A stretch of 64,000 nt of DNA from Pseudomonadota bacterium (GTDB taxonomy: Bacteria > Pseudomonadota > Alphaproteobacteria > Rhodobacterales > Rhodobacteraceae), in contig JBCCVD010000012.1 in the NCBI GenBank assembly GCA_039195745.1, positions 39,100-103,099 on the forward strand, in the 5' to 3' direction. The position numbers and the translations under genes are program-made. Within the stretch, counting starts at the first letter, position 1. Every line of letters starts with the position of its first letter. The notes below the pieces were generated by a model that did no database searches, was not told the DNA's origin, and saw only the letters and a program-made list of their open reading frames with translations. Below are positions 7,199-30,095 of the stretch, in pieces.

Positions 7199-7199
7199 C

Positions 7200-13285: not shown

Positions 13286-14281
13286 CTAGCCGCCAAACCT
13301 GTCTTGCCATGTGGGCAATATGTCCTCTCGTGCCTGCGTCGCTTCGTAGACGGCGCGCGCGATGGCGCGGGCGAGGCAGACGGACGCGGCATGGCCGATA
13401 GTGAGCGGATCCATCACGGCATCTTGCAACTCCCGGGCTTGCGTTGAGACACCAAAGATCAGGTCGCCATCCATCGGTGTATGGCTGGGCCAAAGCGCGC
13501 GGGCCATGCCGTCTTGCGCTGCCGTTGCCATCCGTGTGCAGCCCGCTTTGTCGAGCGCCGCATCTGTGGCCACGATGGCAATTGTCGTGGCTTCGCCGGG
13601 GGTGAGCTTGATGCGTGGCGTCAGGGCGGCATTGTGGGTAATCTTGGGGCCGAGCCCGCCGAATTCTGCGTCAAGCTCGCAGGGCGCTGCATGGAAATGC
13701 GGGCTGTCTTCCACGGTCGCTGATCCCAGCGCATTGACCACCACCAAAGCGCCCACCGTGTAGCCCGAAGGCAAAACCAGTGAGGCAGAGCCGAGCCCGC
13801 CTTTCAGATTGACCGTTGTCGCGCCCGTGCCCGCGCCTTGGCTGCCGATTTCAAAATCAGGCACAGCAGCGTCTGCGGCCTTTGCGCCAAGTGCGGGGTA
13901 GGGATTGGCGTCCCAGGCCGTGTCGCCGCCGCTGGCCAGATCGAAGATGATGGCCGCTGGCACAATCGGAACAACATGCGGACCGACAGCAAAACCGATC
14001 CCCGTCTTGCGCAATGTCGCCGCCACCCCGTCGGCTGCTGCCAGCCCGAAAGCGGAGCCGCCAGACAGCACCAGTGCGTTGACCTGTTGCACGGTCTTGT
14101 CAGGCGCCAGCAAATCCGTTTCCCGCGTGCCGGGCGCACCACCCATCACGTTGATGCCAGCCGTAAACGGCGCGGCCCCGCGCAACACTGTGACACCGGA
14201 TTTCAGCGCACCGTCCTGCGCATTGCCGACCGTCAAGCCGGGCACATCGGTGATCAGATTGCGCGGCCCCGGACGCATCAT
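13286..14281 (-). CDS. P1-family peptidase (DmpA/ArgJ-like, S58)
   Basis: NLITDVPGLTVG, GGAPGTRET, LSGGSAFGL, TTIAIVATDA, DGDLIF motifs. Confidence 0.9.
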   Translation of the reverse strand: MMRPGPRNLITDVPGLTVGNAQDGALKSGVTVLRGAAPFTAGINVMGGAPGTRETDLLAPDKTVQQVNALVLSGGSAFGLAAADGVAATLRKTGIGFAVGPHVVPIVPAAIIFDLASGGDTAWDANPYPALGAKAADAAVPDFEIGSQGAGTGATTVNLKGGLGSASLVLPSGYTVGALVVVNALGSATVEDSPHFHAAPCELDAEFGGLGPKITHNAALTPRIKLTPGEATTIAIVATDAALDKAGCTRMATAAQDGMARALWPSHTPMDGDLIFGVSTQARELQDAVMDPLTIGHAASVCLARAIARAVYEATQAREDILPTWQDRFGG

Positions 14282-14628
14282 ATCCGCGGCTTTCCTGCAG
14301 CCGTTGCCGGATCCCCTGTGTTGGGCGTGCCTGCGGGCTCGATCAGCAGAACTTTCGCCTCGCGGCTGGCCCTTGGCCGATGCCGCACGCCCGCAGGTAC
14401 CACGCAGAGTTCTCCGGGTCCCAAAACATGGCTCTCCCCTTCGATGTCCAGCGTGACCTCCCCATCGAGCACCAGGAAGAAATCATCCGTGTCGGGATGG
14501 TCGTGAAAGGGAAATGTACCCTGAAATTTGACCACCATCACGTCGTTGCCATTGTAGTCGGCCACGACATGCGGGTCCCAATGGGAACTGAATTGCGCCA
14601 GCTTCTCGGCCAAATTCACAGGTTTCAT
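14278..14628 (-). CDS. Cupin-domain protein
   Basis: HDHPDTDDFF...VPAGVRHRP cupin motifs; ATG at 14628. Confidence 0.88.
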   Translation of the reverse strand: MKPVNLAEKLAQFSSHWDPHVVADYNGNDVMVVKFQGTFPFHDHPDTDDFFLVLDGEVTLDIEGESHVLGPGELCVVPAGVRHRPRASREAKVLLIEPAGTPNTGDPATAAGKPRI

Positions 14629-14734
14629 CGACAGCACTCCTTCCCGGCGCATCTTGCCAGATCGCGGCTGACCCGCAAGGGTCTGCGCGCTGTCATGGTT
14701 TCGTCATTTTGCTATGGTTTGCAGGCCATTCACA

Positions 14735-14787
14735 TGGCAAACTCTCGTAAATTGCCACATCATGCCCATGTTATAGGGCATAACATG
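14735..14787. promoter_or_regulatory. Two inverted repeats upstream of the coiled-coil/AAA operon
   Basis: TGGCAA-N11-TTGCCA (14735-14757) and perfect CATGTTAT-N5-ATAACATG (14767-14787), ending 20 nt before ATG 14808. Confidence 0.5.
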
Positions 14788-14807
14788 AACAAGAGGGATG
14801 GATTTAC

Positions 14808-15884
14808 ATGGCTGTTTTTGATGCACAGGTTCGGGAATCGCAGGCACAGGTCGAGGAAGCGCAGGCGAAGATTTCAGAGCTGACCAGCCGCATTGAAACG
14901 GCCCGTGCCAAGCTGAAAACCGGCGATGATATCTCCATCGACATCGAAAATGCCTCCCTTGAAGATGTGCATGCGCATACTGAGCTGATGAATGCCAATA
15001 TCGCTGAGTTGATCATGGGGCTCGATGATGTGACCTCCGGCTTTTCCGAAGATTTTAATGCGATGCGCGACAAGACCGGCTGGGAAAGCTTTGTGGGCAT
15101 TTTCTCCAAGGGCAAATCCGAATCCTTACGTCAGGAACGTATGCGCACGGCGTCTATCGACGATAAGCTGCAGGATTTGATCTCCAAATCCGACCAGATC
15201 GTGGCGCTGTTGCAAGGCCAGTTATCCGTGCTCAACGAACAGAAAACAAAGGTTGAAGGCAACCTGACAGAGACCTTGGACGAGCGCGAGATGACGGTCG
15301 GCGAGCTTGAAACCCTGCGCGCAGAGATCCTTGGCATGGACCCGAAGATGATCGAGCTGGAGAATAAAATTTCCGTCGAACAGGACGCCGCCGCACGTAC
15401 GAAGCTTGAGACCGAGCTGGCTGATCTCAACACGAAGTACAACGCGATGGTGCAGGACGAGCAGGTTAAGCTCGCCAAGTCCCAAACGCTGGAGCGCTAT
15501 ATCGAGAAAGGCAAAACCTGGATCGACTCCCTGCAGAACCAAGCCGCGACGCAGATGGTGCTGATCAACAAGCTGGAGACGGACACCAAGCAACGCGTCG
15601 TGCTCTATGATGCCCTGACCAAATCCTTGAAGACCGCCCAGCAGCAGGACGTGGCCCACCAGATCAACGAGATCGGCGTCAAGACGGATCAGGAAGCCCA
15701 AGCCGCCATGGCCGGGATCGGTTCAGCGACGAATGCCCGCATGGCCGAGATGATGGAAGCCCATGAAGACCAAATGGTCTTCGCCCGCAAGGTGTTGGAG
15801 CAGAAGGCCAAAGCCGACGAACGCTTCGCCCGCCGCTTCGAGAAGATTGTAGAGAAGCACGACAAGAACCTCTACGGGGCGTAA
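14808..15884 (+). CDS. Core gene A: 358-aa all-helical coiled-coil protein (TelA-like size and pattern, inferred)
   Basis: Heptad-rich, no TM; host-like codon usage; GAGGGA RBS; amphipathic WESFVGIFSK segment. Confidence 0.8.
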   Translation: MAVFDAQVRESQAQVEEAQAKISELTSRIETARAKLKTGDDISIDIENASLEDVHAHTELMNANIAELIMGLDDVTSGFSEDFNAMRDKTGWESFVGIFSKGKSESLRQERMRTASIDDKLQDLISKSDQIVALLQGQLSVLNEQKTKVEGNLTETLDEREMTVGELETLRAEILGMDPKMIELENKISVEQDAAARTKLETELADLNTKYNAMVQDEQVKLAKSQTLERYIEKGKTWIDSLQNQAATQMVLINKLETDTKQRVVLYDALTKSLKTAQQQDVAHQINEIGVKTDQEAQAAMAGIGSATNARMAEMMEAHEDQMVFARKVLEQKAKADERFARRFEKIVEKHDKNLYGA

Positions 15885-16145
15885 GTGCTTTCGAGGGAAG
15901 CGAAACAATGTCTGACCATCGGTTGTGTCCTTATTGCGATAAGCTTGCTTCCCGGTCTGATCCTTTATCTGTCGTTAACCCATGACATTTGGTTTCCGCC
16001 AGTCGTCGAACGAATTGCCGGTGCGGTGTTTTACTTCGCTTCATTTGTGTTAGGGCTCTTGGGCATCGTTTTTCTAGCAGTCGGAGTCGTGGCGCTTTGT
16101 GTTGCAAAGTTGAAAAAGAAAGAACCCGAGATTGCGGATTATTGA
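15885..16145 (+). CDS. Small 2-TM hypothetical protein (insert)
   Basis: GTG directly after the gene A stop; two hydrophobic stretches, basic tail; AT-richer than core. Confidence 0.6.
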   Translation: MLSREAKQCLTIGCVLIAISLLPGLILYLSLTHDIWFPPVVERIAGAVFYFASFVLGLLGIVFLAVGVVALCVAKLKKKEPEIADY

Positions 16146-16153
16146 AGTTCCAA

Positions 16154-16262
16154 AGCCCGACACTAGCACGCAAGCGCTGAGAGCAGCCCTCGACCGCAGG
16201 CGTCGGGCTGAAAGCCCCCGCCCATGGGGGCGGTCGGGGGCTACCCGGTGTTTCACACCGGG
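16154..16262. repeat. Composite REP-like palindrome cluster
   Basis: AGCCCGAC/GTCGGGCT (16154-16161/16202-16209), GGGCT-GAA-AGCCC, AGCCCCC/GGGGGCT (16213-16242), CCCGGTGT/ACACCGGG (16244-16262). Confidence 0.65.
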
Positions 16263-16277
16263 CGGGAGCGGATTGTC

Positions 16278-16496
16278 ATGAGCGGCACCACAAAACAAGT
16301 GAACCCATTTAGACTCTTCGTTTGCGTAGTCGTCGGAGCAATTAACATTCGACTGGGTTTCGAGCTCTACGATGGCGGATTTTGGTCCTTGCTATTGGGG
16401 GCAGTATTTACCACAGGCGGTGCCGCGTTGATTGCATCCGCGATTTTCATCGCGTTTCGGCGCTCCGTTCGATTGGATATGACGAAAAATGACTGA
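16278..16496 (+). CDS. Small 2-TM hypothetical protein (insert), 72 aa
   Basis: ATG 16278 after GGGAG; two hydrophobic segments; stop overlaps the duplicated gene B start. Confidence 0.55.
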   Translation: MSGTTKQVNPFRLFVCVVVGAINIRLGFELYDGGFWSLLLGAVFTTGGAALIASAIFIAFRRSVRLDMTKND

Positions 16497-16532
16497 AGAC
16501 CTCAACCTCACCGTCGATCACGCGGGCATCAC
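16489..16532 (+). repeat. 44-nt direct repeat, truncated copy of the 5' end of core gene B
   Basis: 42/44 identical to 16958-17001 (ATGACTGAAGACCTCAACCTCACC[G/A]TCGATCA[C/T]GCGGGCATCAC); reads MTEDLNLTVDHAGIT then diverges to a stop at 16588-16590. Confidence 0.92.
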
Positions 16533-16589
16533 TTTTGTAGTAGGGTCAGGATTTGAAGCCTGGCGCAATTGCCCTCTAAGGAGAAGTTA

Positions 16590-16961
16590 GTGCTGCGTTT
16601 TATAAGTGGGCTTGTATGTGCGCTTTTGGGGTGGATCGCAGTGTCTGCAATCTATTGTTTGACCATGCTTGTGGTCGCTCTGCCGTGGTTCGCATCTGCA
16701 ATTCTCGCGATGATACTGACCGACAATGACACCATCCGACTGTTCATTATGGCGCCCGCAACGCTATTTCTTTTCATCTTTTTCTTCTGGTTCGCGTCAC
16801 GCTTCGTGTTGGCGGGGTTCTTCGGAATATGGGGCATGGCGGGATTGGTGTTCCACAAGAGCGCTGACGTGACGCCCTCCCGCATCGCCAATTTTCTAGT
16901 CGAACGCGCACAGCTGATGCGAAGCGATTTAGTGTGGTACTTTTCGAAGGTTAAATCATGA
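16590..16961 (+). CDS. 3-TM hypothetical protein (insert), about 123 aa
   Basis: GTG 16590 with AAGGAG at 16578-16583 (track start 16569); strongly hydrophobic; ATGA overlap with gene B. Confidence 0.65.
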   Translation: MLRFISGLVCALLGWIAVSAIYCLTMLVVALPWFASAILAMILTDNDTIRLFIMAPATLFLFIFFFWFASRFVLAGFFGIWGMAGLVFHKSADVTPSRIANFLVERAQLMRSDLVWYFSKVKS

Positions 16962-18088
16962 CTGAAGACCTCAACCTCACCATCGATCATGCGGGCATCA
17001 CGGATGACCTCGCGGCCCGCCGTTACTTCGCGAAGTTCGAGCGGATCACAGGGCATCTCGCCCGGGTGGCGGCTGAGATGGAGATTGAGCGCACGTTCAG
17101 CAAGCGCGATGTGGATATCATCGCGGGCTATGTGGCACGGATCGCTTATACCTTCCGCGCGCTCAGCCATAAATATCTGCTGACGGGCCGTGACACGGGG
17201 CAGTTTTTCGGCTCGCTCACCATCGACAAGAAGGAAAGTGGTTTTCCCGTTTTCTCGGAACTCATGACCATGGCCAATGATGCGCAACAGGCCGAAAAGC
17301 ATCTGGGCGGCATGCGCAGCAAGGAAGATATCAAGGACGAGATGATCCGCCAGATTGTCGGCGATCTGACAATCCCGACCAAGCTGCAATTCGCACTGTC
17401 ACAACGGATGTATTACGAGCAATTGCAGCTTGGCGATTTGTTCTGGGCCACCAATGATGCGCAAGCGCTTTGGACTGGTAACCTTGATAATCGCCGCACC
17501 TATCTGCTGCATTGGGCTGTTTACGATTCGCGCCAGAATGTGCCGACCATCTATCTGATGGATATCGAGGATTCCGGCGACATCGCTCTGCCCAAAGACG
17601 CCCGACGCTGGCCCTCTGTGCAGGCGCATCTGACCGCACAAGGCTCGAACGGGCTGAAGCTGTTGACCATCGCGCAGGGTTTTGATCGCGACTTTGACGA
17701 TCTGCACCCCAAACGCCTGCGCCGTATCCATGTGGGCCCGATGTACAGCCACGCCTTCACACATCAGTCCGGTCCGATCCGCGACGTGCTGGCCGAGGCG
17801 CAAGGTGCGCAGGGCGAAGACTGGACGCTGGCTTGGACGGTCGAGACGCTGGAATCCGAGCGCGTCGAGATGGAGAAGAAAGGCTGGTTCGGCTCGGTCG
17901 AGCGCGAGATCTTCGCGCTCGATCCCTTTGCCGGGCGCGGCGCTGAGACAGGTGCGACCTCAACCGAGCGCTCCATCATCATGCCCACGCGCCCCTATCA
18001 GGTTCTGGCCGAGAAAAACCCGGCAGGTTTCGCCAATATCCGCAAATTCGTCGTCAGCCCGGCCGGCCGTGTCGTGAGCTACAGGTAG
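16958..18088 (+). CDS. Core gene B: 376-aa soluble protein of unknown function
   Basis: Long ORF with host-like GC3; no motif recognised. Confidence 0.8.
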   Translation: MTEDLNLTIDHAGITDDLAARRYFAKFERITGHLARVAAEMEIERTFSKRDVDIIAGYVARIAYTFRALSHKYLLTGRDTGQFFGSLTIDKKESGFPVFSELMTMANDAQQAEKHLGGMRSKEDIKDEMIRQIVGDLTIPTKLQFALSQRMYYEQLQLGDLFWATNDAQALWTGNLDNRRTYLLHWAVYDSRQNVPTIYLMDIEDSGDIALPKDARRWPSVQAHLTAQGSNGLKLLTIAQGFDRDFDDLHPKRLRRIHVGPMYSHAFTHQSGPIRDVLAEAQGAQGEDWTLAWTVETLESERVEMEKKGWFGSVEREIFALDPFAGRGAETGATSTERSIIMPTRPYQVLAEKNPAGFANIRKFVVSPAGRVVSYR

Positions 18089-18107
18089 GGTGGGCAATCT
18101 GCCCACC
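18085..18107 (+). repeat. GTAG-type REP element
   Basis: GTAG followed by GGTGGGCA-ATC-TGCCCACC (perfect 8-bp stem); its TAG is the stop of gene B. Confidence 0.7.
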
Positions 18108-18124
18108 GTTCAAAGGAAAAACAC

Positions 18125-20059
18125 ATGACCCAATCCGCCGATTTCATGGAATTGAAAGAAGACGACATCCGCGGCCATTACGCTGCCGCCACAGCCATGC
18201 TGGAAGGCGTCGATCACACGCCGCGTATTGCCAAGGCGAAGGAGGCGCCCGCGCAGGAGCGCTCCAGCGGGATCGGAACACGGCGCAGGTTTCGCTCTAC
18301 CACGCCGGGGCTGGTGACGCGCTCAACCGCGCGGCCCGAAGGCGTCAAGCTGATCGACCGGATCGAGGGGATTGGCGAGGACACGCTGCCCTCCGCTTTG
18401 CAAGCCACGACCCTGCAAGCCTTGCGCCGCGCGCTGGCCATCGCGCTGGAAACCGGCGCGCAATTTGCCGAGGCCACGGGATTGGCCGAACTGAAGCGAG
18501 AGAATCTCGAAGGTCGCCTCTCGGACGCCAAGAAGGCCGAATTCACCGATCTGCTCGCCGCCGAAGCGCTGGCCAGCCTGCACACATTCGCCAACGCCAC
18601 CTCCCTGTTGCTCAGCACCCAAGCCACAGAAACCACGGTGGAAATCGGTGCGGTCGAGGAAGTCCTGACTGACAATGCCCAACTCGCCCTGCACGGCGCT
18701 TTGTGGGAGCTTGATCAAGACCTGGCCCTTTTCGCAGATGACGATGCCAAGATGATCGCGACTGTTCTGTCCTTCACTGAACAGCTGATGGAGAAAGCCG
18801 CTTTGCGCGCTGCCAACACGCCCAGGCTAGAGCCGTTCAACACCGCCTCCTACCGCGTGGAGGCCGACGACCTGACGATCAACGGCTTCACCCCGGCGCG
18901 CGCCGCCAAGGGTTCCAAGCTGACCATGACCTTCAAGAAACCCAACGAGGTCGTCGGCAACCACATCGCCAAGTATCAAGCCATGAAGCTCGCCAAGATG
19001 CTGATGGCCTATGATTTCGACCGCAAGCTCAACCCCTTTGCCGAACTCGGTGGCTTCATCTTCACCTTCATGGGCGACGGTGCGCCGGGAACAGGGAAAA
19101 CCACGCTGATCCAAATGATGGCAGGCCTGATCTCCGGCTATTGCGAGACGGCTGGCTATGCTTTCCGCTACCAGAACCTGTCCACCGACAATATTGACAG
19201 CTATCAGGGCAAGTCCGGCCAGAACGCCAAGGCCTTCATCAACAATGTCATCGACCCGAACGTCATCGGGTTTGGGACGATTGACGATATCGACCAGCTT
19301 GCGGGCAAGCGCGGCGACCGGCAATCCTCGGCGGGTCAGTTGGAGATCACCGCTGTACTCATGGAAAGCTTCGCCGGTGCCAACACCGTTGTGCGCGGCA
19401 ATTGCACGTTCGGCATGTTCTCCAACTACCCCGAAAATGTCGATGACGCGCTGCGCCAACGGGCAGGCGCCCGCTTCCTGGTCGACGGGCCGCAAACCCG
19501 CGACGACTATGTCGATATTCTCAACCTGCTGATGGGCAAGAACCACGACATCCCCTTGGGCGATTTCGAGCCGTTTGCCGCGCAAGAGATCAAGAAAGCC
19601 GTCGCCGCCAGCTTTGAAAGCCATGGTAAACCGCATGAGGAAGGCCTGCTGAAAGTCTACGAAAAAGTCTCAAACGAGATCGGCGAGCTGAACACGATCA
19701 ACAAGCTCGGCACCTATCTCAAAGGCATCCAGGAGGCCGACCATCGCTTCACCGGCCGCGCCATCAAGAACATCACCGACGCCGTCAAAGTCCGCGCCAT
19801 GGATTTCGAGCTGCCCGATGAATGGATGGAAGAGCCCGACCTGTTTCTGTTCAAATCCTATGACGAGAAAAAGGGTATGATCGAGGAGCTGCGCCAGCCC
19901 ATCACGGTCGAGATGGTGATCCAGGAAATCAACCGCTACGCCGATTCAGAATTCCGCTACGCCGACAAAAGCGACGAAGTCGCGATTGCGAATATGGTGC
20001 GCGAATACGGGCTGACAGAGCAGGCGAAAAAGCGGTATCTGGAGAGTAAGGGTTCGTGA
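18125..20059 (+). CDS. Core gene C: AAA+ ATPase with a long unknown N-terminal domain
   Basis: Walker A GAPGTGKT, Walker B-like FGTIDDID, sensor-1/SRH FSNYPENVDDALRQRA. Confidence 0.9.
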   Translation: MTQSADFMELKEDDIRGHYAAATAMLEGVDHTPRIAKAKEAPAQERSSGIGTRRRFRSTTPGLVTRSTARPEGVKLIDRIEGIGEDTLPSALQATTLQALRRALAIALETGAQFAEATGLAELKRENLEGRLSDAKKAEFTDLLAAEALASLHTFANATSLLLSTQATETTVEIGAVEEVLTDNAQLALHGALWELDQDLALFADDDAKMIATVLSFTEQLMEKAALRAANTPRLEPFNTASYRVEADDLTINGFTPARAAKGSKLTMTFKKPNEVVGNHIAKYQAMKLAKMLMAYDFDRKLNPFAELGGFIFTFMGDGAPGTGKTTLIQMMAGLISGYCETAGYAFRYQNLSTDNIDSYQGKSGQNAKAFINNVIDPNVIGFGTIDDIDQLAGKRGDRQSSAGQLEITAVLMESFAGANTVVRGNCTFGMFSNYPENVDDALRQRAGARFLVDGPQTRDDYVDILNLLMGKNHDIPLGDFEPFAAQEIKKAVAASFESHGKPHEEGLLKVYEKVSNEIGELNTINKLGTYLKGIQEADHRFTGRAIKNITDAVKVRAMDFELPDEWMEEPDLFLFKSYDEKKGMIEELRQPITVEMVIQEINRYADSEFRYADKSDEVAIANMVREYGLTEQAKKRYLESKGS

Positions 20060-20340
20060 ACAGGTTCAACTTCGCGACGAGTTTCTATCCTCAAGCAGAT
20101 GAAAAACCCTTCCATTTTGCGGAGCGGTATCAGGGCGGCATAACTTACGATCCAATTCCCAAATGCGACGTCAATGTTGCCTGTATGTTTCCCGAAATGG
20201 CGTTTGCACCGCCCATGTTTCATCTCTTTATCAGCGCAGCGACCGTGCTCACTGTGTTGGGCTTGAGCGTCGTGCTATGGCTGCTAGCGCATGGCTTGCT
20301 CGGCGCAAAGCGGCTGCACATGAAGGTCGTGAGACAGTGA
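20056..20340 (+). CDS. Possible small protein with C-terminal TM (insert or relic)
   Basis: GTGA overlap with the ATPase stop; hydrophobic MFHLFISAATVLTVLGLSVVLWLLAHGLLG; N-terminal half looks atypical. Confidence 0.35.
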   Translation: MNRFNFATSFYPQADEKPFHFAERYQGGITYDPIPKCDVNVACMFPEMAFAPPMFHLFISAATVLTVLGLSVVLWLLAHGLLGAKRLHMKVVRQ

Positions 20341-20605
20341 CCTTCGATACCAAACATCTTTCCAACCCTGTGCGCTTCGCATCGGAAGACAGCGTCAGAC
20401 CGGGGGGCGGCGATCTGAGGGTGCTTCGATCACACAAATCGCCAGTCCTCTCGGGCGGTCTGCAATGCCCACGGTCTGAAAATCGGGCATGTACTGCTGG
20501 TTGATAGCTGACCAACCTGCCTTTGGCTCAACTGTCTTGAATGACCGCTATCATATAGCTCCACATTTTTTATACTGGATTGGGATGGGAAGTGGAGGAG
20601 CTCGT

Positions 20606-21424
20606 ATGACCAGTTGGCATCTAGACGAAACCCATCTGACATCGGCTGGATCGGTCGCTGCCGGTCGCACAGGTGCCGGACCAGACCTCGTGCTGGCGCA
20701 TGGCTGGCCTTGGTCGTCGTATTCCTGGCATCGCGTTATTCCTGAGTTGGCGAAGTCCTTTACCGTTTACTGGTACGACATGCCTGGCTACGGCAAATCG
20801 AGTAAATCAAAAAACCAACGGACGTCGCTGGATGTCCAAGGTAAGGTTTTCGCGGAGCTTCTAGCGCTTTGGGGTTTGTCGAAACCAAGAGTGGTCGCGC
20901 ATGATTTCGGCGGTGCAACGACGCTCAGGGCGCATCTTTTGCATGGATGCGAGTTCGAGCAACTGCTGCTAATGAACGTAGTGGCAATGCGTCCCTAGGG
21001 ATCGGATTTCTTTGATCATGTCGGGCGACATGTCGATGCCTTTCAGGGCTTGCCACCCCATATCCACAAGGCGGTGGTTGCGGCCTATATCCAAGGTGCA
21101 TTGGTCAATGACATTCCTGTTGAGGATTTTGATGCCTTGGTCGCTCCATGGCTCAATGAGGATGGCGCGACGAGCTTCTATCGCCAATTTGCTCAAGCAG
21201 ACGAAAGATATACAGAAGAGGTCGAGGCTCAGTTTGGCGATGTTCGCTGTCCGGTGAAAATCGTTTGGGGTGAAGATGATCCATGGATACCGCTCGACAG
21301 AGGCAAAGCATTGCATCAGCTCATGCCCAAAGCTCAGTTCGTCACCATCCCCGGTGCGGGCCACATGCCCCAACTCGAAACTTCGGAAACAGTCCTGAAG
21401 GAAGTGTTGAAGTTTTTTAAGTAA
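20606..21424 (+). pseudogene. Alpha/beta hydrolase (Asp-nucleophile, epoxide hydrolase/dehalogenase-like) interrupted by one in-frame TAG
   Basis: ATG 20606 after GGAGG; AHGWP, AHDFGG, WGEDD, GAGH motifs; TAG at 20996-20998 in MRP*GSDFF, same frame open to 21424. Confidence 0.85.
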
Positions 21425-21589
21425 ACCCAAATCACGGAAAGCAGACTTTTGGGGCACGGTGCAGCATCGATCAAAGTGGACCCAAAAGCCGACGTTAGCG
21501 AAAAACGGAAACGGCTTCGGTTTAAGCCACGTTCCTTGCGTAACACTTTCCGTTAAAGCTATGCTCGCGCCTGTAAGTATGGGGGGCGC

Positions 21590-22219
21590 ATGAGAGCATC
21601 GAAACACGTCTGGCGCATCGCTTTGATGGCGCTGGTAGGGCTTTTGGGCGGGGCTTTTGCAGCAGCCTTAACTCTGCAAAGCTCCGACCTTTTCAGCTTG
21701 ATACCGCCGCCGACGGAGCTCAATCCGAACCCAGCCGCTGACGTCACGCCTGACCGCATCCTCAGCCTTTATCAATCCGCCTTCACCGCTTGGGCCGCGC
21801 TTGTTCTGTTGGTTCCGGCCTATATCTTCGTGTGGTTGCGCACGCATGATGCCGCGTGGTTGGCGTTTTGGACGACGAGCTACATCGCCTATGTGATCCA
21901 CCTCTATGTCTCTGCCTTCTGGTTCTTCGAAGGGGATTTCGAGGCCATGACCACCTCCTCCCGCGTGTCAGCTTTCTTGCCGGGCATGGCCGTCCTGATT
22001 TGGTGGGGCGTCGATGTGGTGATTGGATTTGCCAAGATACATGCCACATGGGTCACCGTGCAGCGTGTCATTGTGCATCTGCTGGTCTTTGTCCTCTTCG
22101 TCGGCGGATCAGCGGTGAAGGGAGAGACAGGATTGATTCAGCTTATGGGCTGGGCGCTGTTTGGTGCCGGTGTGGGGGCGACGGGTGTCGCTTCCCTCAA
22201 CCTTCGCAGGGCCGCATGA
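21590..22219 (+). CDS. Multi-TM hypothetical membrane protein (insert), 209 aa
   Basis: About six hydrophobic segments; ends in an ATGA overlap. Confidence 0.75.
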   Translation: MRASKHVWRIALMALVGLLGGAFAAALTLQSSDLFSLIPPPTELNPNPAADVTPDRILSLYQSAFTAWAALVLLVPAYIFVWLRTHDAAWLAFWTTSYIAYVIHLYVSAFWFFEGDFEAMTTSSRVSAFLPGMAVLIWWGVDVVIGFAKIHATWVTVQRVIVHLLVFVLFVGGSAVKGETGLIQLMGWALFGAGVGATGVASLNLRRAA

Positions 22220-22599
22220 TGGCCGCTCTTTTCCTTGCATCCGGCTGGTGCCTTGCAGCATAAGGCGCGCTTTTGGGGCGTTGGCGCGTGGGACGACTGG
22301 CGTTTAGGCGCGAAGAGCAGTCTCCAATCTACTTTCAAATGTCGCTCTTGATCACCTGTGTCGTCTGTTTCGGCATTGAATTGCGACGATACAGCCCGAA
22401 CGCGTTGTCAGTACGAACAGCGGTAGTGGTCGAGATGCTGATCGGTGTGGGTCTTGCGCTATTTTTGGTACATCAGAAACTTGCGAATAACGACAAGTCT
22501 TTCGCGGGCGTTGCCAAGGCTATCTTGTATCGCGGTCTGGGCGCTGAGCAGAGGCTGCGCGAATTCCTGTCTTGCCTGCTTCACACGGGTCGCGCATAA
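22216..22599 (+). pseudogene. Decayed ORF whose first 29 codons match the 23562 gene
   Basis: From 22219 MAALFLASGWCLAA*GALLGRWRVGRLAF versus MAALFLIVWIIPAAWGAFSGYWRAARPAL: 15/29 ungapped, TAA at the Trp position; frame continues open to 22599. Confidence 0.6.
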
Positions 22600-22651
22600 A
22601 GCACGTTGCGTTATTGCGCTTTAAATTGACTATGAGTTATCTGAGAAAAAG

Positions 22652-22999
22652 ATGAGTTCAGAAAATTCGCTCGGATTACTGATTTTACTTCTGGGTTTTC
22701 CTACGTTCCTGAGTGTTGCGGGCATATTGAATTTGTACTTTCGACGCGGAACGGCAACTTTTCTCTATTTGGGAACCGTAGTTCTGGCATTGCCTCTGGT
22801 CCTTTCTATGCTGGCCAATCTGTTTGCTGGGCCAAATGGTTCGATGGGCTCAGCGATCGCTGGTATTCTTTCGATGCCATTGGCGTTGGGAAGCGTTTGT
22901 TGTTTCTTCATAGCCACATTTATTGGAAGCGCACGCATTCCGAAATCTGAGTTCATAGCCTTGGTCGTTGCTGTGGTTGCAGTCATGTTGATGATTTAA
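22652..22999 (+). CDS. 4-TM hypothetical protein (low-GC insert), 115 aa
   Basis: Nearly all hydrophobic; one sampled 60-nt line is 40% GC versus 60% for a sampled line of the ATPase gene. Confidence 0.65.
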   Translation: MSSENSLGLLILLLGFPTFLSVAGILNLYFRRGTATFLYLGTVVLALPLVLSMLANLFAGPNGSMGSAIAGILSMPLALGSVCCFFIATFIGSARIPKSEFIALVVAVVAVMLMI

Positions 23000-23561
23000 G
23001 CCTTTTTTGCAGCGGCTACTTCAAATAATGCGCTGTTGTTGGCTGTTACTGGGGTCTACAGATTGGCATGAGTGTTAACCTATTGCTGTGCAAGTCGCAG
23101 CTCTGCGCATCCTTGTCTTAATCGCGCGTGCCTTCTGAGGCGCGGTGTTTTTGCAAGACTGCAACACGCTATCACTTCATCCACCCCCGACAGGCGCTTA
23201 GCCGTCTTCCGCATCGGATGCGTCGCTGGACGCGGTCTTTTCATTTCAAACCTTCGGTGCCATCGTTTGGTCAGCGTGCATTTTGCTGATTTGTGCTCAA
23301 AGCACGGTTTGAGTGTCCGTTTTTCGGTCCTGCGAGTTCATCGCCCGTCGGAACAGTTCAGGGGGAGGGCGCGCTCGGCCTGGGAAAAGCACATGCCAAT
23401 GAGATCAGAGGGTTAACATGCACCTGCTCGGTTTGGACCCTTTGCTGGCAGTGGTCGCGAAGCGGAGGGCGGCATTGATGCGGATGGTGGAGTGGGCTTT
23501 ACTATGCGCGGGCATCGCTGCACGTGCTGTGTCTCCTCTCAACCGAAGGAAGCTTGTGTAA

Positions 23562-23885
23562 ATGGCTGCGTTATTTCTCATCGTCTGGATCATTCCCGCC
23601 GCCTGGGGTGCCTTTTCCGGCTACTGGCGCGCGGCGCGGCCGGCGTTGAACCTTGGGGATTTTTCCAAGGATATCGGCATTGCCTTGATGACGGCCGCAG
23701 CGCCGATTTTCATGTTTCACATGGTCTGGGTTGGCGCGTTCATGGAAATGACGGGGGGGCTTTCTGCGCTGGGCTCCTGGGCGTGGTATTGGTCCTGGCT
23801 GACCGCGCTGATCTGGTTCCCGCTGATGGTCATCGCCTATATCTGGCGGGCAATGAAGATCAAGCGGGGGGCGCGGGGTTTGTGA
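23562..23885 (+). CDS. Trp-rich 3-TM hypothetical protein, 107 aa
   Basis: Hydrophobic segments, host-like GC; GTGA overlap with the next ORF. Confidence 0.7.
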   Translation: MAALFLIVWIIPAAWGAFSGYWRAARPALNLGDFSKDIGIALMTAAAPIFMFHMVWVGAFMEMTGGLSALGSWAWYWSWLTALIWFPLMVIAYIWRAMKIKRGARGL

Positions 23886-24241
23886 CCCTGCATGTCGCCT
23901 TTTTTCTGATCACCTTGGTTGTCCAGTTTCTGCTGGTCCATGTCATGACGACCCGCGCGTGGTTCCCGCAGATCCCCGTTGTGCCAGCCGCCATCGGGCA
24001 GGGCGTGTTGACCTTGATCGCCGTGGCCATTGCGGGCGGGTTTGTGTCTGGGATGCTCTGGTTCTCTCTGATTGCTTATCCGATCCTGTATTCCTGGGCC
24101 TTTGCGCCGGACCCGGACATGACGCAAAACCTGCAAGCCATGCAGGAAAATCGGGGCATTGTCTTCTTGCTTGTGATGTCCCCATATTTGTACATGCTGA
24201 TCCAGCTTTATGCCCGCATGATCGAACAGCGCAGAGCATGA
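23882..24241 (+). CDS. 3-4 TM hypothetical protein, 119 aa
   Basis: GTG 23882 overlapping the previous TGA; C-terminal half of track ORF 23492..24241, whose upstream part is a shadow of the 23562 gene. Confidence 0.65.
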   Translation: MTLHVAFFLITLVVQFLLVHVMTTRAWFPQIPVVPAAIGQGVLTLIAVAIAGGFVSGMLWFSLIAYPILYSWAFAPDPDMTQNLQAMQENRGIVFLLVMSPYLYMLIQLYARMIEQRRA

Positions 24242-24377
24242 GGTTGGCAGTCCTTCAGGAATGGCGATACAGTGGCGGCAGGCAATGTTTCTTGGGTTAA
24301 CATCTGGTAAATGAAATTTTGAAACCTTATATATATCATATGGTTAGTAAAATCCCCGCATGCGGGGCGTCCCGCTG

Positions 24378-25718
24378 ATGATGCGGCTCATCCAAAAAGG
24401 GTTGATGTATGGCAACCTGTTTCATGTCAGCTCACCGGCTTTGGTGGAGCGCTATAATCGCGCGCTCAAGCACCTGACCGGCAAGACCACGGGCCTCACG
24501 GATTTTCACATTGATATCGCAGGCTACGCACCCGAGGTCGGCGAAGAACTGGGCGATCATCTCTATATCAACCCGCAGGGCTGCAACCGGCAGTTCATCT
24601 TGCTGTCGACCGAGCAAAAGACAGCGCCGCTTCTGGATGCGAAATTCTCCACCAGCCGCGGGATTTTGAGGCAGTTCATCGAAGAAAACGAGGCGCAGCT
24701 CTTCGCTTTGACGGCGCGCGATGCGGTTGCGGGCGAGCTCGTCAATTCGATCTATACGGTCACGAAAGCGGCGCATCTGTTTGATATTCGCAAAATCAGG
24801 ATCGAAGCTGACACCACGGGCGGCCATGTGCGGGAGGCGGAGAAACTGGGGGCGATGATCGATGAATTCCGTACCCGCGACGATGCCTGGTGGGACGACG
24901 TTCTGATCGCAGATATGATCACGCTGGCCAAGAAAACCGGCGATGTGACCCGCGTGCCGATTGGTCTTGATCAGACCGAATATGAGCAACAGAATTTCTG
25001 GACCTCCCATTTTGGCGGGCTCTACGCCTTCCGCGATGTGAAAACGCCCGCGACAATCTGTGTGGGCGAGAAAGAGGCCGTTGGCACTCTGCCCACGGGG
25101 GAGACCATCGGCTTTGATGAATCCAACAAGATCGCGGCGTTTCTTGAACAGAACGATCTGGTAGAACCGATCGTCAAAGCAAAGGGCGTCAACTCCATCG
25201 ATATCCTGCGTCAGAAGCTCGACTTCATCATCGTCGATGTCGCGGCCACGATGGATGCAGATCTGACAGGGCTGCGTCGTTCTGATCTGCGTGGCCTCGC
25301 GCGGCGCTACGCGAGCTTGCTGCCGCAGGAGTTTCACCAGCTCAACGATCTGCTTCGCTGGGCGGAAGGCGGTGGTGGCTGGCCGCGGATCACCTCGAAA
25401 GACCCGGCCTATTTCTACACCTTACGCGCCACGAACCACAAAGACCGTGACCTTGTGAACCAGCTGCTGGCAGAGCTTGCGCCCCTGGATGTGCGTCAGC
25501 TTTTCATCTGTCACAAACAGCTCTTCTATGACCGCTACGCCACGTGGCCGGAGGAAAAGAAGGAATTCGTGGCGAATTTTCTCGAACGCGAGTATCAGGT
25601 GGACAAGGCGGGCGCGCGCGAGGCGCTGTTTGGACATGAAGATGCAATGGAAGAACCGCAGCCGGTCGATATCGTGGATGTGGTTGGTCCTTGGGGCGCG
25701 GTGAGGAGAGGGCGATGA
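24378..25718 (+). CDS. Core gene D: DUF6638-like protein
   Basis: N-terminus MMRLIQKGLMYGNL..SPALVERYNRAL recalled as a Rhodobacteraceae DUF6638 start (from memory, not searched); 446 aa, soluble. Confidence 0.7.
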   Translation: MMRLIQKGLMYGNLFHVSSPALVERYNRALKHLTGKTTGLTDFHIDIAGYAPEVGEELGDHLYINPQGCNRQFILLSTEQKTAPLLDAKFSTSRGILRQFIEENEAQLFALTARDAVAGELVNSIYTVTKAAHLFDIRKIRIEADTTGGHVREAEKLGAMIDEFRTRDDAWWDDVLIADMITLAKKTGDVTRVPIGLDQTEYEQQNFWTSHFGGLYAFRDVKTPATICVGEKEAVGTLPTGETIGFDESNKIAAFLEQNDLVEPIVKAKGVNSIDILRQKLDFIIVDVAATMDADLTGLRRSDLRGLARRYASLLPQEFHQLNDLLRWAEGGGGWPRITSKDPAYFYTLRATNHKDRDLVNQLLAELAPLDVRQLFICHKQLFYDRYATWPEEKKEFVANFLEREYQVDKAGAREALFGHEDAMEEPQPVDIVDVVGPWGAVRRGR

Positions 25719-25984
25719 TCCTTGGCATAATCAGACTGTCGGTCGTGGCCTTCTTCGTCATGCTGTTAGTCTATTTCGTTTTGTCCTGGTGGTCGCGGTC
25801 CGTGCGCCGCAAGAAGCTAGGGATCGAGTGGGATGAAGAGATCAAGGCAGGCGACCGCGAGGCCTTCATCGAAGAGGGGCTGGAAGATTATGACGGCTCC
25901 CTCCGCCGCAAGCTGATCATGGGCGTGTTCATCGTGCCCTACATGGTGATTGGCGTTTTGGTCTACGTCGTGAATTTTCAATAG
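25715..25984 (+). CDS. Core gene E: 89-aa 2-TM protein with acidic loop
   Basis: ATGA overlap with gene D; GAGGAG RBS; host-like codon usage. Confidence 0.75.
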   Translation: MILGIIRLSVVAFFVMLLVYFVLSWWSRSVRRKKLGIEWDEEIKAGDREAFIEEGLEDYDGSLRRKLIMGVFIVPYMVIGVLVYVVNFQ

Positions 25985-25996
25985 GGGAGCAGACCC

Positions 25997-26686
25997 ATGC
26001 ATTACATCAAACGCGCCTTTTGGACCGTGTTCTGGGTCCTGCTGATCGTCTTCCTGCATTACACGCTGCCACAACGCGATATCGCGCGTATCGTCGAAAC
26101 CGAAGTCCGCCGCGTCGATTTCGGAGAGAACTCCATTTTTTGGGCCGGCGCCGATACGGGCCAAGATGGCACGGGCGTGAACCGCGACATTCGGTTTGTG
26201 AACACCGTCCGTAAGACCACTTATCTGTTCGGCCTGATCCAGACCGGTCGGGAACGCCCCATGGTCTACCGCAACGAGGACACGGGCTGGGGCTGGCCGC
26301 CATATTTCAAATTGGATTCATCAAATTTGCAGACGGAAATGGCGGATAACAAAAGCACTGCAAATGATCCGCAATGGGTTGTGTTGACCCATTACGGCTG
26401 GCGCAATGAATTCCTGTCGATCTTCCCGAATGCTGTAGGGGTCCGACCGATTGAAGATCCAAACACTCGGCTTATACCATATTTCAATATCCTCATTCTG
26501 ATCATACTTGCAGGCCTGATGCTTGGTTTCTACCGGCTCACCCAATGGTTCCGCCGCGAAAAGATTGACCCGATTGTGGATAGCGCATCAGAGAAATGGG
26601 ACGGCGTCGATGCCTATGCGGATGAGAAACGCGCGGGGTTCCGCGGCTGGCTGGATAGCTTCAAGGGTAAGAAAAAGCGCTATTAG
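25997..26686 (+). CDS. Core gene F: DUF1523-like membrane-anchored protein
   Basis: FLHYTLPQRDI, MVYRNEDTGWGWPPYFK.DS.NLQ, YGWR.EFLSIFPNA; N- and C-terminal TMs. Confidence 0.8.
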   Translation: MHYIKRAFWTVFWVLLIVFLHYTLPQRDIARIVETEVRRVDFGENSIFWAGADTGQDGTGVNRDIRFVNTVRKTTYLFGLIQTGRERPMVYRNEDTGWGWPPYFKLDSSNLQTEMADNKSTANDPQWVVLTHYGWRNEFLSIFPNAVGVRPIEDPNTRLIPYFNILILIILAGLMLGFYRLTQWFRREKIDPIVDSASEKWDGVDAYADEKRAGFRGWLDSFKGKKKRY

Positions 26687-26695
26687 GTCGCCCGC

Positions 26696-27472
26696 ATGAA
26701 ATGGGTCCTGCTCGCTCTTCTCGCGACTTACGTTGCCTATGCTTTGGTGATGATCTGGTTGCACCCGCGTTTCATCTACCCGTTTCAACCTGACGATGTT
26801 GTGCTTGATGGTTTCGAACGTGTGGAACTGGCAGGCGCAGATGGGACGCCGGTCTTCGTTCAGGAACGCAAAGGGTCGGGTCCGGCTGTGCTCTATTTCA
26901 TGGGCAATGCCGGAGCAGTTGCGTTTTTTGAAACGGCCTTTACGCCTCACCTTGCCGCTGATCGTCATGTCATCGCTTTGGAATATCGCGGCGGCGCGGG
27001 GCGGCCGGGTGTGCAAAGCGAAGCGGTTCTGAAATCCGACGCTCTTGTCGCTGCGGATTATGCACTTTCCAAATCAAAGCCGGTCGTGGCGCAGGGATAT
27101 TCGCTCGGCAGTGGGCTCGCGACATATGTGGCGGCGCGCCGCCTTTTGGACGGCGTGGTGCTCGTGGCCCCTTATGATCGGCTCTGCAGGCTTTTGAGCC
27201 AGCGCTCCTTTTTGCCAGCTTGCTATTTGCCTTTCGTTCAAAAATGGACATCCATTGATGAAGCGCGCCGCATCACGGTGCCAATTCACGTTTTGCACGG
27301 GTCGGACGACAATTTGATCCCACCACGCTACAGTGTGGCGTTCTCTGCGCTTCCAAACGTCACAAGACGCCTCATCGATGGGGCGGGCCACACCGATATC
27401 GGCCAGTTCGAAGACTATCAAACGGGCCTCGCAGGGGCGTTTGAAGATTTTTTGGCGCGGTCAGAGAGCTAA
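26696..27472 (+). CDS. Membrane-anchored alpha/beta hydrolase
   Basis: YFMGNAG, GYSLG nucleophile, HGSDD, GAGH; N-terminal TM. Confidence 0.88.
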   Translation: MKWVLLALLATYVAYALVMIWLHPRFIYPFQPDDVVLDGFERVELAGADGTPVFVQERKGSGPAVLYFMGNAGAVAFFETAFTPHLAADRHVIALEYRGGAGRPGVQSEAVLKSDALVAADYALSKSKPVVAQGYSLGSGLATYVAARRLLDGVVLVAPYDRLCRLLSQRSFLPACYLPFVQKWTSIDEARRITVPIHVLHGSDDNLIPPRYSVAFSALPNVTRRLIDGAGHTDIGQFEDYQTGLAGAFEDFLARSES

Positions 27473-27788
27473 ACCTGTCATTTAGTCAGAATTGCTGCCC
27501 TATCGTAATCCGACCCCAAAATTTAGGGGAAACCGAACCTTGTTCTCCCATTATATGGTAAAACCGTGGCTGCTAGGTTTTGGTTATGGAGCGCGGATCA
27601 TCATCCGCCTCCGTTGGGGAGTTATTCAGGCCAAGGACCCTTTGGAGAGCTGACAAAGCTTTCATGAAGGGCACGCTCGACCCCAAATCGAGCCTGTTGT
27701 CCACGGCCTACGCTGCCTAGTTACGAGTTCTGACGTGTGGGAGGGCGCCCGATCTCAATGGTCGGGTGTCTTCTTATGCGCAGCACCT

Positions 27789-30095
27789 TCACTCGCCATA
27801 CGGCACCCAAATGTTTTTCACCTCGGTGGATGCGGCCAGCATGTCTTTGTCTGACAGCAGGTCTGGTGCGATTAGAGTGCGCTTGAGATTGCTGGCCGAA
27901 GCACGCTCGATGACCTGTGCTAGCGATGTGGAAGAGAAGCTCCAGACCGCATCCACATCCATGTGCCGCGCCAGATGCGGTGCGAGCTCTGCATGCGACC
28001 CAGTCAGGATATTGACCACGCCTCCCGGCACATCCGAGGTTTCCAATACCTGAATGAAATCCGTAGCGGCCAATGGGAATGGCTCTGATGCGGTCAGAAC
28101 GATCCGGTTGCCCATGGCAATTGCAGGGGCCAGCGTGCCGACAAGGCCTGCCAGTGGCGCTGCATCCGGGCAAAACGCGCCGATGACACCAACTGGTTCC
28201 TTCATCGCCAAAGCCACGCCCCGGATCGGGACCCCGTGGACTTGCCCGTCATATTTGTCGGCCCAGGCCGCATAAGAGAAGAGCGTATTGATAGCAGTTT
28301 CCACCTCTGCCTTGCCGCCTTTGCCGGTCATGGCTTTGACACGGTCGGCGAATTCAGCCGCTCGCGCCGCAAGGTTCTCCGCCAGATAATAGAGAATTTG
28401 TGCGCGCAGATGGCCGGTTGTCTTCGACCACGCTTTCGCACTATGCGCGGCTTCAACAGCGTTGCGGATATCTTTGCGATTGGCGAGGCTGACCTCACCC
28501 AAAGCGGCACCTTTCGGCCCATAGACCATGCGTGAATAGCCACCATCGGGCCGGGCCTGTTTCCCGCCGATATAAAGCTTCGCTGTGCGGTCAATCGGAT
28601 CAGGCATCCCGCCTTTGCCCTCAAATGCGGCGACGGGTTTGACCGGTTTCGGCGCAGTTTTTGGCTTGGTATAGGCGCTCAGACTCTCCCAACCGCCTTC
28701 ACGCCCGAACCCGCTTTCGCGCACACCGCCAAAGCCCGCGGCTGCGTCAAACAGGTTGGTCGCATTCACCCAGACAATCCCGCTTACGAGCTTCGGCGCG
28801 ATGTCCAGCGCGAGGTTGATATTCTCTGTCCAGACCGTCGCGGCCAGCCCGTAGCGTGTGTCGTTGGCTATCGCGACGGCCTCCACAGGCGTGCGGAAGG
28901 TGGTGGAGACGAGAACAGGCCCGAAAATCTCTTCCTGCATCAAGGTTGAAGAGGTGCTAAGCCCCGTGATCAGGGTCGGTGGATAGAAGCAGCCCGCAGG
29001 GGCGGGACCGGCTTGAAAGGTCTCGCCCTCGGAATTTGCCTCTACCATGCCTTTGATCGTTGCCAATTGCGCCGGATCTACGACCGCGCCCACATCAATG
29101 CATTTGTCGAGCGGATCGCCGATACGCAGCCCTTCCATGCGGGTTTTCAGTTTGGCGTAGAACCGCTCTGCGACGCCTTCCTGCACCAACAAGCGCGAGC
29201 CTGCGCAGCAGACCTGACCCTGATTGAACCAGATCGCATCGACGAGCCCTTCAACGGCGCTGTCCAAATCCGCGTCGTCAAAGACGATGTAAGGCGACTT
29301 GCCGCCCAGCTCCAAGGTCAGCGCTTTGCCCGATCCTGCTGTCGCTTCGCGTATCTTGCGGCCCACGGAGGTCGAGCCGGTGAAAGCGATCTTGTCGACA
29401 TCGCTCGCAACAATCATCTCACCCACGGCGCCGTCGCCTGTGACGATGTTGATCACGCCCGGCGGCACGCCTGCCGCATCGCAAATCTCCGCAAACACCA
29501 TGGCCGAAAGCGAGGTGTATTCCGCGGGTTTCAGCACCACCGTGTTGCCCATCGCCAAGGCTGGCGCAATTTTCCATGAGAGCATCAGCAGCGGGAAATT
29601 CCACGGGATGATCTGCCCGCACACGCCCAGTGCCTCGCGGTCGGGCAGCTCGCTTTCCATCAGCTGCGCAAAGCCCGCGTGATGGTAGAAATGCCGGATC
29701 GCCAAGGGCACATCGATATCACGCGCTTCCCGGATCGGTTTGCCATTGTCGAGGCTCTCAATCACCGCCAGCAAGCGGCTATGTTTCTGCAGCCCCCGCG
29801 CAATCGCATAGAGCGCGCGCGCGCGCTTTTGAGGGTCCTTGCCCCAAGCCGTCTGCGCCTTGCGCGCGGCTTTCACTGCGCTTGTCACTTCCTCCGCCGT
29901 GGCTTGGGTCACCCCCGCCAAATTCTCCCCCGTTGCCGGATTCTTGCTCGCGAAATCATCGCGCAAAGGCCCCCATTTGCCACCAATAAAGTGCCCGGCA
30001 ATCCCGCCGCGGTCTCTTAGCCAAGCCAATGCCTCAGACGCGCTTTCAGGCGCAGGGCCGTACTCCATCGTCTCGAATATTTTTTTTACGGTCAT
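27789..30095 (-). CDS. ALDH16-type aldehyde dehydrogenase (full ALDH plus extra Rossmann-like module)
   Basis: IPWNFP, ELGGKSP, NQGQVCC, EEIFGPV in the first ~480 aa; second ALDH-like N-domain without catalytic domain in the last ~270 aa. Confidence 0.88.
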   Translation of the reverse strand: MTVKKIFETMEYGPAPESASEALAWLRDRGGIAGHFIGGKWGPLRDDFASKNPATGENLAGVTQATAEEVTSAVKAARKAQTAWGKDPQKRARALYAIARGLQKHSRLLAVIESLDNGKPIREARDIDVPLAIRHFYHHAGFAQLMESELPDREALGVCGQIIPWNFPLLMLSWKIAPALAMGNTVVLKPAEYTSLSAMVFAEICDAAGVPPGVINIVTGDGAVGEMIVASDVDKIAFTGSTSVGRKIREATAGSGKALTLELGGKSPYIVFDDADLDSAVEGLVDAIWFNQGQVCCAGSRLLVQEGVAERFYAKLKTRMEGLRIGDPLDKCIDVGAVVDPAQLATIKGMVEANSEGETFQAGPAPAGCFYPPTLITGLSTSSTLMQEEIFGPVLVSTTFRTPVEAVAIANDTRYGLAATVWTENINLALDIAPKLVSGIVWVNATNLFDAAAGFGGVRESGFGREGGWESLSAYTKPKTAPKPVKPVAAFEGKGGMPDPIDRTAKLYIGGKQARPDGGYSRMVYGPKGAALGEVSLANRKDIRNAVEAAHSAKAWSKTTGHLRAQILYYLAENLAARAAEFADRVKAMTGKGGKAEVETAINTLFSYAAWADKYDGQVHGVPIRGVALAMKEPVGVIGAFCPDAAPLAGLVGTLAPAIAMGNRIVLTASEPFPLAATDFIQVLETSDVPGGVVNILTGSHAELAPHLARHMDVDAVWSFSSTSLAQVIERASASNLKRTLIAPDLLSDKDMLAASTEVKNIWVPYGE

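Follow-up and report, generated by a model that had tools for sequence, protein, structure and literature searches.

A conserved gene cluster of Rhodobacteraceae built around a classical AAA ATPase and a helical protein may encode a stress-induced machine at the inner membrane

In the Vps4/ESCRT-III system of eukaryotes, with its archaeal counterpart CdvB/CdvC, an AAA ATPase of the classical clade with an aromatic pore loop stands beside a soluble helical-hairpin protein, and the pair has a link to the membrane. In the PspA/Vipp1 (IM30) systems with PspBC or LiaI, a helical protein under stress control is encoded together with small proteins of the inner membrane that have one to three transmembrane segments. 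Here we describe six co-oriented genes, A to F, at positions 14808 to 26686 of a 64,000-nt stretch of contig JBCCVD010000012.1 from a member of the Rhodobacteraceae (the window, meaning the whole stretch analysed), which share these features in part. The AAA domain of the ATPase, C, finds its best sequence matches in another set of described proteins, namely the ATPase module of FtsH/Yme1, Msp1 and the fidgetin/katanin group, and the locus shares with FtsH and lon a heat-shock-type control. The helical protein A further resembles TelA in being all-helical, in its size (about 360-400 residues) and in a weak profile-profile signal. By analogy, the logic that we propose, a motor that would recycle a helical assembly, is that of Vps4/ESCRT-III. 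Tentatively, and with slightly less than even confidence, we suggest that the locus encodes an AAA machine, induced by stress, whose task at the inner membrane is to remodel the helical protein A.

An earlier note on this DNA proposed that these genes form a single multi-gene system, and their co-occurrence and adjacency in other genomes strongly uphold this. Genes A, B, C and D occur together in the same 27 of 49 good-quality genomes (60 relatives were searched), all in the window's own family, and all four are missing together from the same genomes, one of which is 100% complete and another 95% complete. The order A-B-C-D-E-F on a single strand was seen in 20 of 20 excised regions of relatives and in all 65 adequately flanked loci (80 fetched), which span dozens of Rhodobacteraceae genera, and this conservation of order is far beyond chance. 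When one genome per species was scanned with the profile of DUF6638, the family of D, at least 590 species genomes matched. Among the matches listed, the nearest relatives are Litoreibacter, and further genera include Shimia, Ruegeria, Marivita, Sulfitobacter and Pseudorhodobacter, as well as Rhodobacter, Gemmobacter, Defluviimonas, Planktotalea and Roseisalinus. Across genera, the identity that these proteins share with those of the window is 75-97% for A, 67-93% for C, 47-96% for D, 48-90% for B and 31-94% for E and F. The chromosomal neighbourhood, with an aldehyde dehydrogenase and an S58 peptidase, is constant across genera, and the divergence of the cluster parallels the relatedness of its hosts; presence within the family is patchy (12 of 19 complete genomes in one sample). 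As judged from these sequence comparisons, A to F are probably a vertically inherited operon.

All seven open reading frames (ORFs) named in the earlier note, A to F and a downstream hydrolase, were found on the plus strand at the coordinates it gave. Gene A (14808-15884) encodes a soluble, all-helical protein of 358 residues outside any Pfam family, and B (16958-18088) a soluble orphan of 376 residues that lies immediately 5' of C in every case. Gene C (18125-20059; 644 residues) encodes the AAA ATPase, D (24378-25718; 446 residues) a soluble protein of family DUF6638 (PF20343), E (25715-25984) a protein of 89 residues with two predicted transmembrane segments, and F (25997-26686; 229 residues) a DUF1523 protein (PF07509). 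For D an alternative upstream ATG exists at 24360, and alignments with homologues begin at 24378. The tight coupling described for the 3' part of the cluster is exactly as claimed, with an ATGA start-stop overlap between D and E and gaps of 12 nt between E and F and 9 nt between F and the hydrolase. Codon usage is host-like, as had also been stated: GC content at third codon positions (GC3) is 0.66-0.79 in A to F and 0.67-0.71 in neighbouring genes. No transmembrane segment was predicted in A, B, C or D, and two each were predicted in E and F. Pfam returned nothing for A, B or E, and NCBIfam, PADLOC and PHROGs gave no specific assignment. C is, as noted before, the sole member with a recognisable activity (Pfam AAA). 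Nor was any pathway found for this gene set in the protein-family libraries and the literature searched, in agreement with the earlier note.

The hydrolase itself (26696-27472, plus strand; 258 residues) is a membrane-anchored neighbour whose Pfam matches are alpha/beta hydrolase families and whose GC3 is 0.60. It follows F in the three closest relatives only among about 100 loci, and it therefore lies outside the system in which it had been counted.

The ATPase C is, by its domain match and motifs, a classical AAA ATPase. Pfam family PF00004 matches residues 319-452 with an E value of 2.4e-11 and 44.6 bits, against a curated cut-off of 21.2. Its Walker A motif is GAPGTGKTT (319-327), its sensor-1 residue is N434, its arginine fingers are R444 and R446, and its pore loop is SYQG (359-362), in which S359-Y360-Q361-G362 conforms to the aromatic pore loop 1 pattern (Ar-x-G). 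These motifs are invariant in 16 genomes and are kept in Vibrio. The Walker B motif reads IDDID (386-390; D387, D388), with Asp at the position of the catalytic Glu, in Sinorhizobium and Vibrio as well, and the hhhhDE form with its catalytic Glu was seen in no sequence compared. The best sequence matches in the PDB are fidgetin-like 1 (1e-5) and an i-AAA ATPase domain (2e-4). Outside the AAA domain, an N-domain of about 290 residues and a C-terminal helical tail have no Pfam match; PF00004 was the only family that Pfam reported, with neither an MIT domain nor the Vps4 C-terminal helix. As a separate observation, residues 50-65 of C contain RRRFRSTTPGL, invariant in Rhodobacteraceae within a low-complexity and probably disordered N-terminal stretch and not found in the Vibrio homologue.

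Protein A is the most conserved member, with the range of identities given above. Its family comprises 4694 clusters at 90% identity, all of them unnamed, and 354 representatives at 50% identity. An AlphaFold2 (AF2) model shows five helices and a confident long hairpin at about residues 130-250, with arms of about 90 residues. With a profile of 41 diverse sequences, searches of PDB and Pfam returned generic coiled coils only, and no Snf7/ESCRT-III match was found in Pfam for A or its 41 diverse homologues. PF04012, the PspA family, did not match A, and hhalign gave the pairing with PspA a probability of 2%; a true PspA is encoded elsewhere in the genome (7.6e-19). A Foldseek search with the low-confidence model yielded nothing at E<=1e-3, and its list held non-specific long helices (XaxB, AhlC, SMC, chemoreceptors and Vipp1; TM-scores 0.2-0.4), with Vipp1 at ranks 24 and 50 only and TM-scores of 0.24-0.30. 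A ClyA-type alpha pore-forming toxin was considered for A and rejected: XaxB and AhlC were the top Foldseek matches, yet with E values of 0.009-0.06 and TM-scores of 0.25-0.34, and a toxin of this type requires a hydrophobic head, whereas A has no hydrophobic segment.

The two remaining soluble proteins are orphans of different kinds. B has no Pfam or PDB match, also when a diverse profile is used, while D matches DUF6638 over its full length (2.8e-226, profile positions 1-439) and found no specific match when PDB was searched by sequence and profile. The AF2 model of D is confident (pLDDT 81.7, pTM 0.76), and the best Foldseek E values were 0.36 in PDB and 0.24 in BFVD, with no relative among solved or viral predicted structures. 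The comparison of AF2 models by Foldseek that the earlier note had suggested thus gave no significant fold match for A or D. A kinship between B and D was also considered, and comparison shows none. The literature searched held no mention of DUF6638, and its mentions of DUF1523 and DUF2333 were uninformative.

In contrast to the soluble core, E and F are membrane proteins. F matches DUF1523 at 6.1e-61 and consists of a transmembrane segment (7-25), a loop of about 130 residues, a second transmembrane segment (156-184) and a basic C-terminal tail. It follows D-E in every Rhodobacteraceae locus, and the D/E overlap and the tight D-E-F spacing occur in all loci. Further membrane proteins are encoded in two variable intervals that interrupt the cluster, and the earlier description of a six-gene cluster thus holds for order and strand, which are fixed, and is to be amended for continuity. 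The interval between A and B (15885-16961, plus strand) carries variable cargo, here three small membrane-protein ORFs on the plus strand: s1 (15885-16145, GC3 0.49), s2 (16224-16496) and s3 (16569-16961); homologues of the latter two occupy this slot in other genomes too. Across loci, A and B lie between 4 and 913 bp apart.

The interval between C and D (20060-24377, plus strand) is a lineage-specific insert of 4.3 kb, and as compared across genomes it is a permissive slot. All of its features lie on the plus strand. Two membrane genes, m1 (21590-22219) and m4b (23562-23885), are conserved in Litoreibacter; m3 (22652-22999, GC3 0.47) is a doubtful ORF. A split alpha/beta-hydrolase gene (20489-21424) is probably a nonsense pseudogene (20606-21424) with a single in-frame stop at 20996-20998 (VVAMRP*GSDFF), and its GC3 of 0.56, like the values of s1 and m3, is below that of the core genes. 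In other genomes the C-D gap measures about 100-2946 bp, and same-strand ORFs with predicted transmembrane segments occur in 52 of the 63 C-D gaps of at least 200 bp, across genera. Recurrent slot families are one of about 125 residues with three transmembrane segments (16 loci), one of about 280 residues with two (12 loci), m4b (8) and m1 (7); because transmembrane segments were predicted only roughly, and in genomes rich in GC, single slot ORFs of this kind are uncertain. The earlier note had envisaged an energised trans-envelope machine. Of this, the link to the inner membrane stands in Rhodobacteraceae, through the D/E overlap, E, F and the recurrent small membrane genes of the slots; the trans-envelope reach does not, since the periplasmic loop of F is the furthest extension and the Vibrio version of the locus has no adjacent membrane gene.

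Comparison with more distant lineages shows that the conserved heart is the soluble four-gene module A-B-C-D and that the membrane partners vary by lineage. In two other alphaproteobacterial families the arrangement is A-B-C-D-F with E absent, and one genome of another class has A-B-C-D-E-F. Sinorhizobium carries A' (41% identity), B' (30%) and C' (52%), then a DUF559 endonuclease gene, sometimes with an insertion sequence (IS), then D' (28-31%; DUF6638 1.6e-69), which is directly followed by a DUF2333 gene. In a sister genus of Sinorhizobium, a Rhizobium-type reduced locus at the same site beside thymidine kinase retains an A-like gene (23%) directly followed by DUF2333, and A is the sole member kept. 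No relationship between DUF1523 and DUF2333 was detectable. Plasmids of about 0.9 Mb in V. vulnificus and V. parahaemolyticus carry A-B-C-D only (39, 29, 43 and 27% identity), followed by mfd.

In S. meliloti 1021 the orthologues are SMc02735 (A'), SMc02734 (B') and SMc02733 (C'). A published transcription start site map of this organism places four start sites upstream of SMc02735 and gives an RNA-seq-supported operon SMc02736-SMc02732 that includes tdk (PMC3616915). The literature searched mentions SMc02733 only in an in-vitro screen, as a fragment bound by ChvI. The DUF559 endonuclease-domain gene of the Sinorhizobium C-D slot (locus L125 of S. meliloti Ak57, 7060-8805; locus L120, 8437-8904) is joined in strain Ak57 by an ISRm16 transposase gene; therefore, the junction that houses membrane genes in Rhodobacteraceae accepts unrelated foreign genes there. 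The Vibrio replicons were deposited as plasmids, comprising the 925-kb 'plasmid unnamed' of V. vulnificus FORC_036 and three V. parahaemolyticus records of 0.88-0.94 Mb, and on them the module adjoins an extra mfd gene, an RNase H family gene and an A24 peptidase gene.

The promoter region of A points to a candidate promoter of the sigma-32 (RpoH) type. In the window it lies at 14745-14771 on the plus strand, with a -35 element TCGTAA (14745-14750), a spacer of 13 nt and a -10 element GCCCATGT (14764-14771), 43 nt before the ATG. The motif came from an unbiased alignment of upstream regions, and the strict pattern TTG-N16-20-CYTATNT did not pick it up. Allowing one mismatch, CCCATAT occurs at -38 to -47 from the ATG of A in 51 of 88 non-redundant loci against 13% in shuffles, and 23 of the 51 have it perfectly against 0.9%. 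At a distance of 14 nt upstream, it is preceded by TTGAAA or, in more cases, by ATGTAA. The RpoH pattern, taken as TTGAAA-N13-15-CCCCATNT upstream of the first gene, is present upstream of A, with perfect TTGAAA-N14-CCCCATAT in several genera. The motif is specific to A, as CCCATAT-type sites were found upstream of B in 1 of 42 loci, of C in 6 of 84 and of D in 13 of 94, where they are scattered. The same architecture is found in this genome upstream of lon, an hsp20 gene, an M48 (HtpX-type) peptidase gene, a BMFP gene, dnaK and clpB.

The BMFP/UbiK-family gene (PF04380) lies on contig C6 of the genome (near 40600, minus strand), and its site, TTGAGA-N14-CCCCATAT, is near the sigma-32 consensus; the gene may belong to the heat-shock regulon of the organism. 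A further element, GTAACAT, is conserved in the spacer of most A promoters at about -65 to -45 from the ATG. Together with ATGTAAA at -35 it forms an imperfect and, in some genomes, perfect inverted repeat, ATGTAAA-N5-TTTACAT, which was not found in the lon, clpB and dnaK promoters of this genome. It could be the operator of a dedicated regulator. Seven close Litoreibacter loci, that of the window included, also share a non-coding element 5' of D (24242-24377, plus strand), which consists of GGTTAACATCTGGTAAA...TTGAAACC(T/C)TATATATATCATATGG and then a hairpin, CCCCGCATGCGGGG. Two promoter-like sites fall within it (24244-24273 and 24311-24339) in a simple sigma-70/terminator scan that was uninformative overall, and Rfam identified no RNA family in 14000-28000, this element included. 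Its conservation suggests that D-E-F has a promoter of its own where the slot is large, and we regard the element as a candidate internal promoter and leader.

Taken as a working model, the core would be a soluble four-protein machine in which C threads a polypeptide through its central pore. A, a long helical protein, would be the client of C and would form an assembly or scaffold on the cytoplasmic face of the inner membrane, which C would recycle or remodel as Vps4 does ESCRT-III. B and D would serve as dedicated adaptors or cofactors, and D may dock the machine on membrane partners that differ between lineages (E and F here, DUF2333 in rhizobia). A heat-shock sigma factor would switch the operon on, and under stress the machine may protect the inner membrane or the proteins in it, or see to their repair or clearance. 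We place an AAA machine on A because C has the pore loop and because A is conserved above all other members and alone persists, with a membrane partner, in the reduced locus. Docking at the membrane is suggested by the coupling of D to E and F here and by its position directly before DUF2333 in rhizobia, and the stress reading by the promoter class, which is that of heat-shock proteases and chaperones.

Several observations weigh against this model. The -35 element of the window's own A promoter is weak (4/6; the closest relative has TTCAAA), and alphaproteobacterial RpoD and RpoH consensus sequences overlap. With Asp-Asp in place of Asp-Glu in the Walker B motif, ATP hydrolysis by C may be slow, or C may work as a switch. 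The AF2 model of A is poor overall (pLDDT 61), no sequence or fold evidence joins A to polymerising or membrane-remodelling families, and no obvious amphipathic membrane-binding helix was seen in A, though without a formal test. The polymerising role that had been assigned to A earlier is accordingly conjectural, given this model and searches that could place A in none of the PspA, ESCRT-III and TelA families. Since no membrane gene adjoins the module in Vibrio, the membrane link may be secondary. Finally, among the promoters listed in the S. meliloti map, that of SMc02735 (CTTGTC-N19-TTATAT) is classed with the RpoD-type motifs (PMC3616915).

The Vibrio arrangement would fit a purely cytoplasmic role, in which C with its cofactors B and D unfolds or disaggregates heat-damaged proteins, A is a co-chaperone or scaffold, and the membrane genes are lineage-specific neighbours. 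A to D all lack transmembrane segments, the promoter resembles those of lon, clpB and dnaK, and the pore loop of C is of the substrate-threading kind. Against quality control of this sort stand the D/E overlap and the fixed D-E-F adjacency in every Rhodobacteraceae locus, the DUF2333 gene that immediately follows D' in Sinorhizobium and the A-like gene in the reduced locus, and the recurrence of transmembrane genes in the slots; we consider it unlikely on balance, while giving it serious weight. A place for A as a very distant relative of TelA, in a module against toxic anions or envelope stress (tellurite-type or membrane-active chemical stress), would agree with its size and all-helical architecture. 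When the profile of A was compared with the genome's own TelA family, hhalign aligned 94 columns centred on the conserved motif T..EK.VGFFSK at P = 0.009, a marginal signal, but the probability was only 4.5%, no member of the 41-sequence alignment matched PF05816 at E<=1, and the genome encodes a separate, bona fide TelA (5e-109). This makes a TelA-like module improbable.

The earlier note had also thought of defence, and an anti-phage or conflict system, whose AAA-driven effector would draw on the slots for a variable part that senses or targets, could account for the patchy presence of the cluster, for the module on giant Vibrio plasmids, for the foreign genes acquired by the slots (the DUF559 endonuclease and the IS in Sinorhizobium) and for the low GC3 of the window's slot cargo. 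A weak PADLOC match to TRIP13 on the AAA domain (1.8e-5) leads in the same direction, but this and the second match of C, IetA (0.005), are to generic AAA proteins, and PADLOC 2.0 returned nothing for B, D, E or F and a chance-level REase_II match for A (E 0.002). No homologue of A was found in the phage collection. Moreover, the position on the chromosome is fixed across genera and divergence tracks relatedness, the sequences are very highly conserved, unlike fast-evolving defence genes, and the promoter is of the sigma-32 type, so that a defence role is the least probable of these accounts and very unlikely. Returning to the remodelling of A at the inner membrane, a bolder form of that reading would have C as an Asp-Asp AAA unfoldase which, with two orphan cofactors, one apparently of a new fold, assembles and disassembles a new class of long helical protein, the whole being a widespread bacterial heat-shock machine not recognised before and an independently arisen functional analogue of ESCRT-III/Vps4 or PspA; we regard this as possible but rather unlikely.

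Hundreds of species carry the cluster, in a group that ranks among the most abundant marine bacteria, and the core of the cluster extends to giant Vibrio plasmids and to a model symbiont, Sinorhizobium meliloti (SMc02735-SMc02733). Of the four core proteins, three are annotated with a DUF number at most, and for one the PDB holds no structural relative. If a stress-induced remodeller is indeed encoded here, it would be an unstudied addition to the bacterial heat-shock ATPases ClpB, Lon, FtsH and HslUV, and A would be a new helical scaffold protein for comparison with PspA and ESCRT-III. Genetics is practicable in S. meliloti and in several roseobacters, which makes the question directly testable.

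How far the likeness to described systems extends can be stated for each of them. The resemblance to Vps4/ESCRT-III or PspA is one of analogy only, because the Snf7 and PspA domains were not detected in A, nor an MIT domain in C. Unlike Vps4/ESCRT-III, the present locus encodes a helical protein without an Snf7/ESCRT-III match that is longer (358 residues, with hairpin arms of about 90 residues), an ATPase that lacks a match to the MIT or Vps4 C-terminal domain and has an Asp-Asp Walker B motif, and two extra obligatory orphans, B and D. Unlike PspA/Vipp1, A has no PF04012 match and is encoded in a genome with a PspA of its own elsewhere, and the ATPase here is an AAA remodeller with a pore loop, whereas PspF of the Psp system is a sigma-54 activator. 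Unlike the membrane-associated AAA remodellers, C has no transmembrane segment or protease domain, possesses unique N- and C-terminal domains, and is always accompanied by A, B and D. The signal that joins A to TelA is non-significant as a database search and comes without a Pfam match, and a true TelA paralogue lies elsewhere in the genome. We therefore rate the locus as matching no known kind of system, although its motor is of a known kind.

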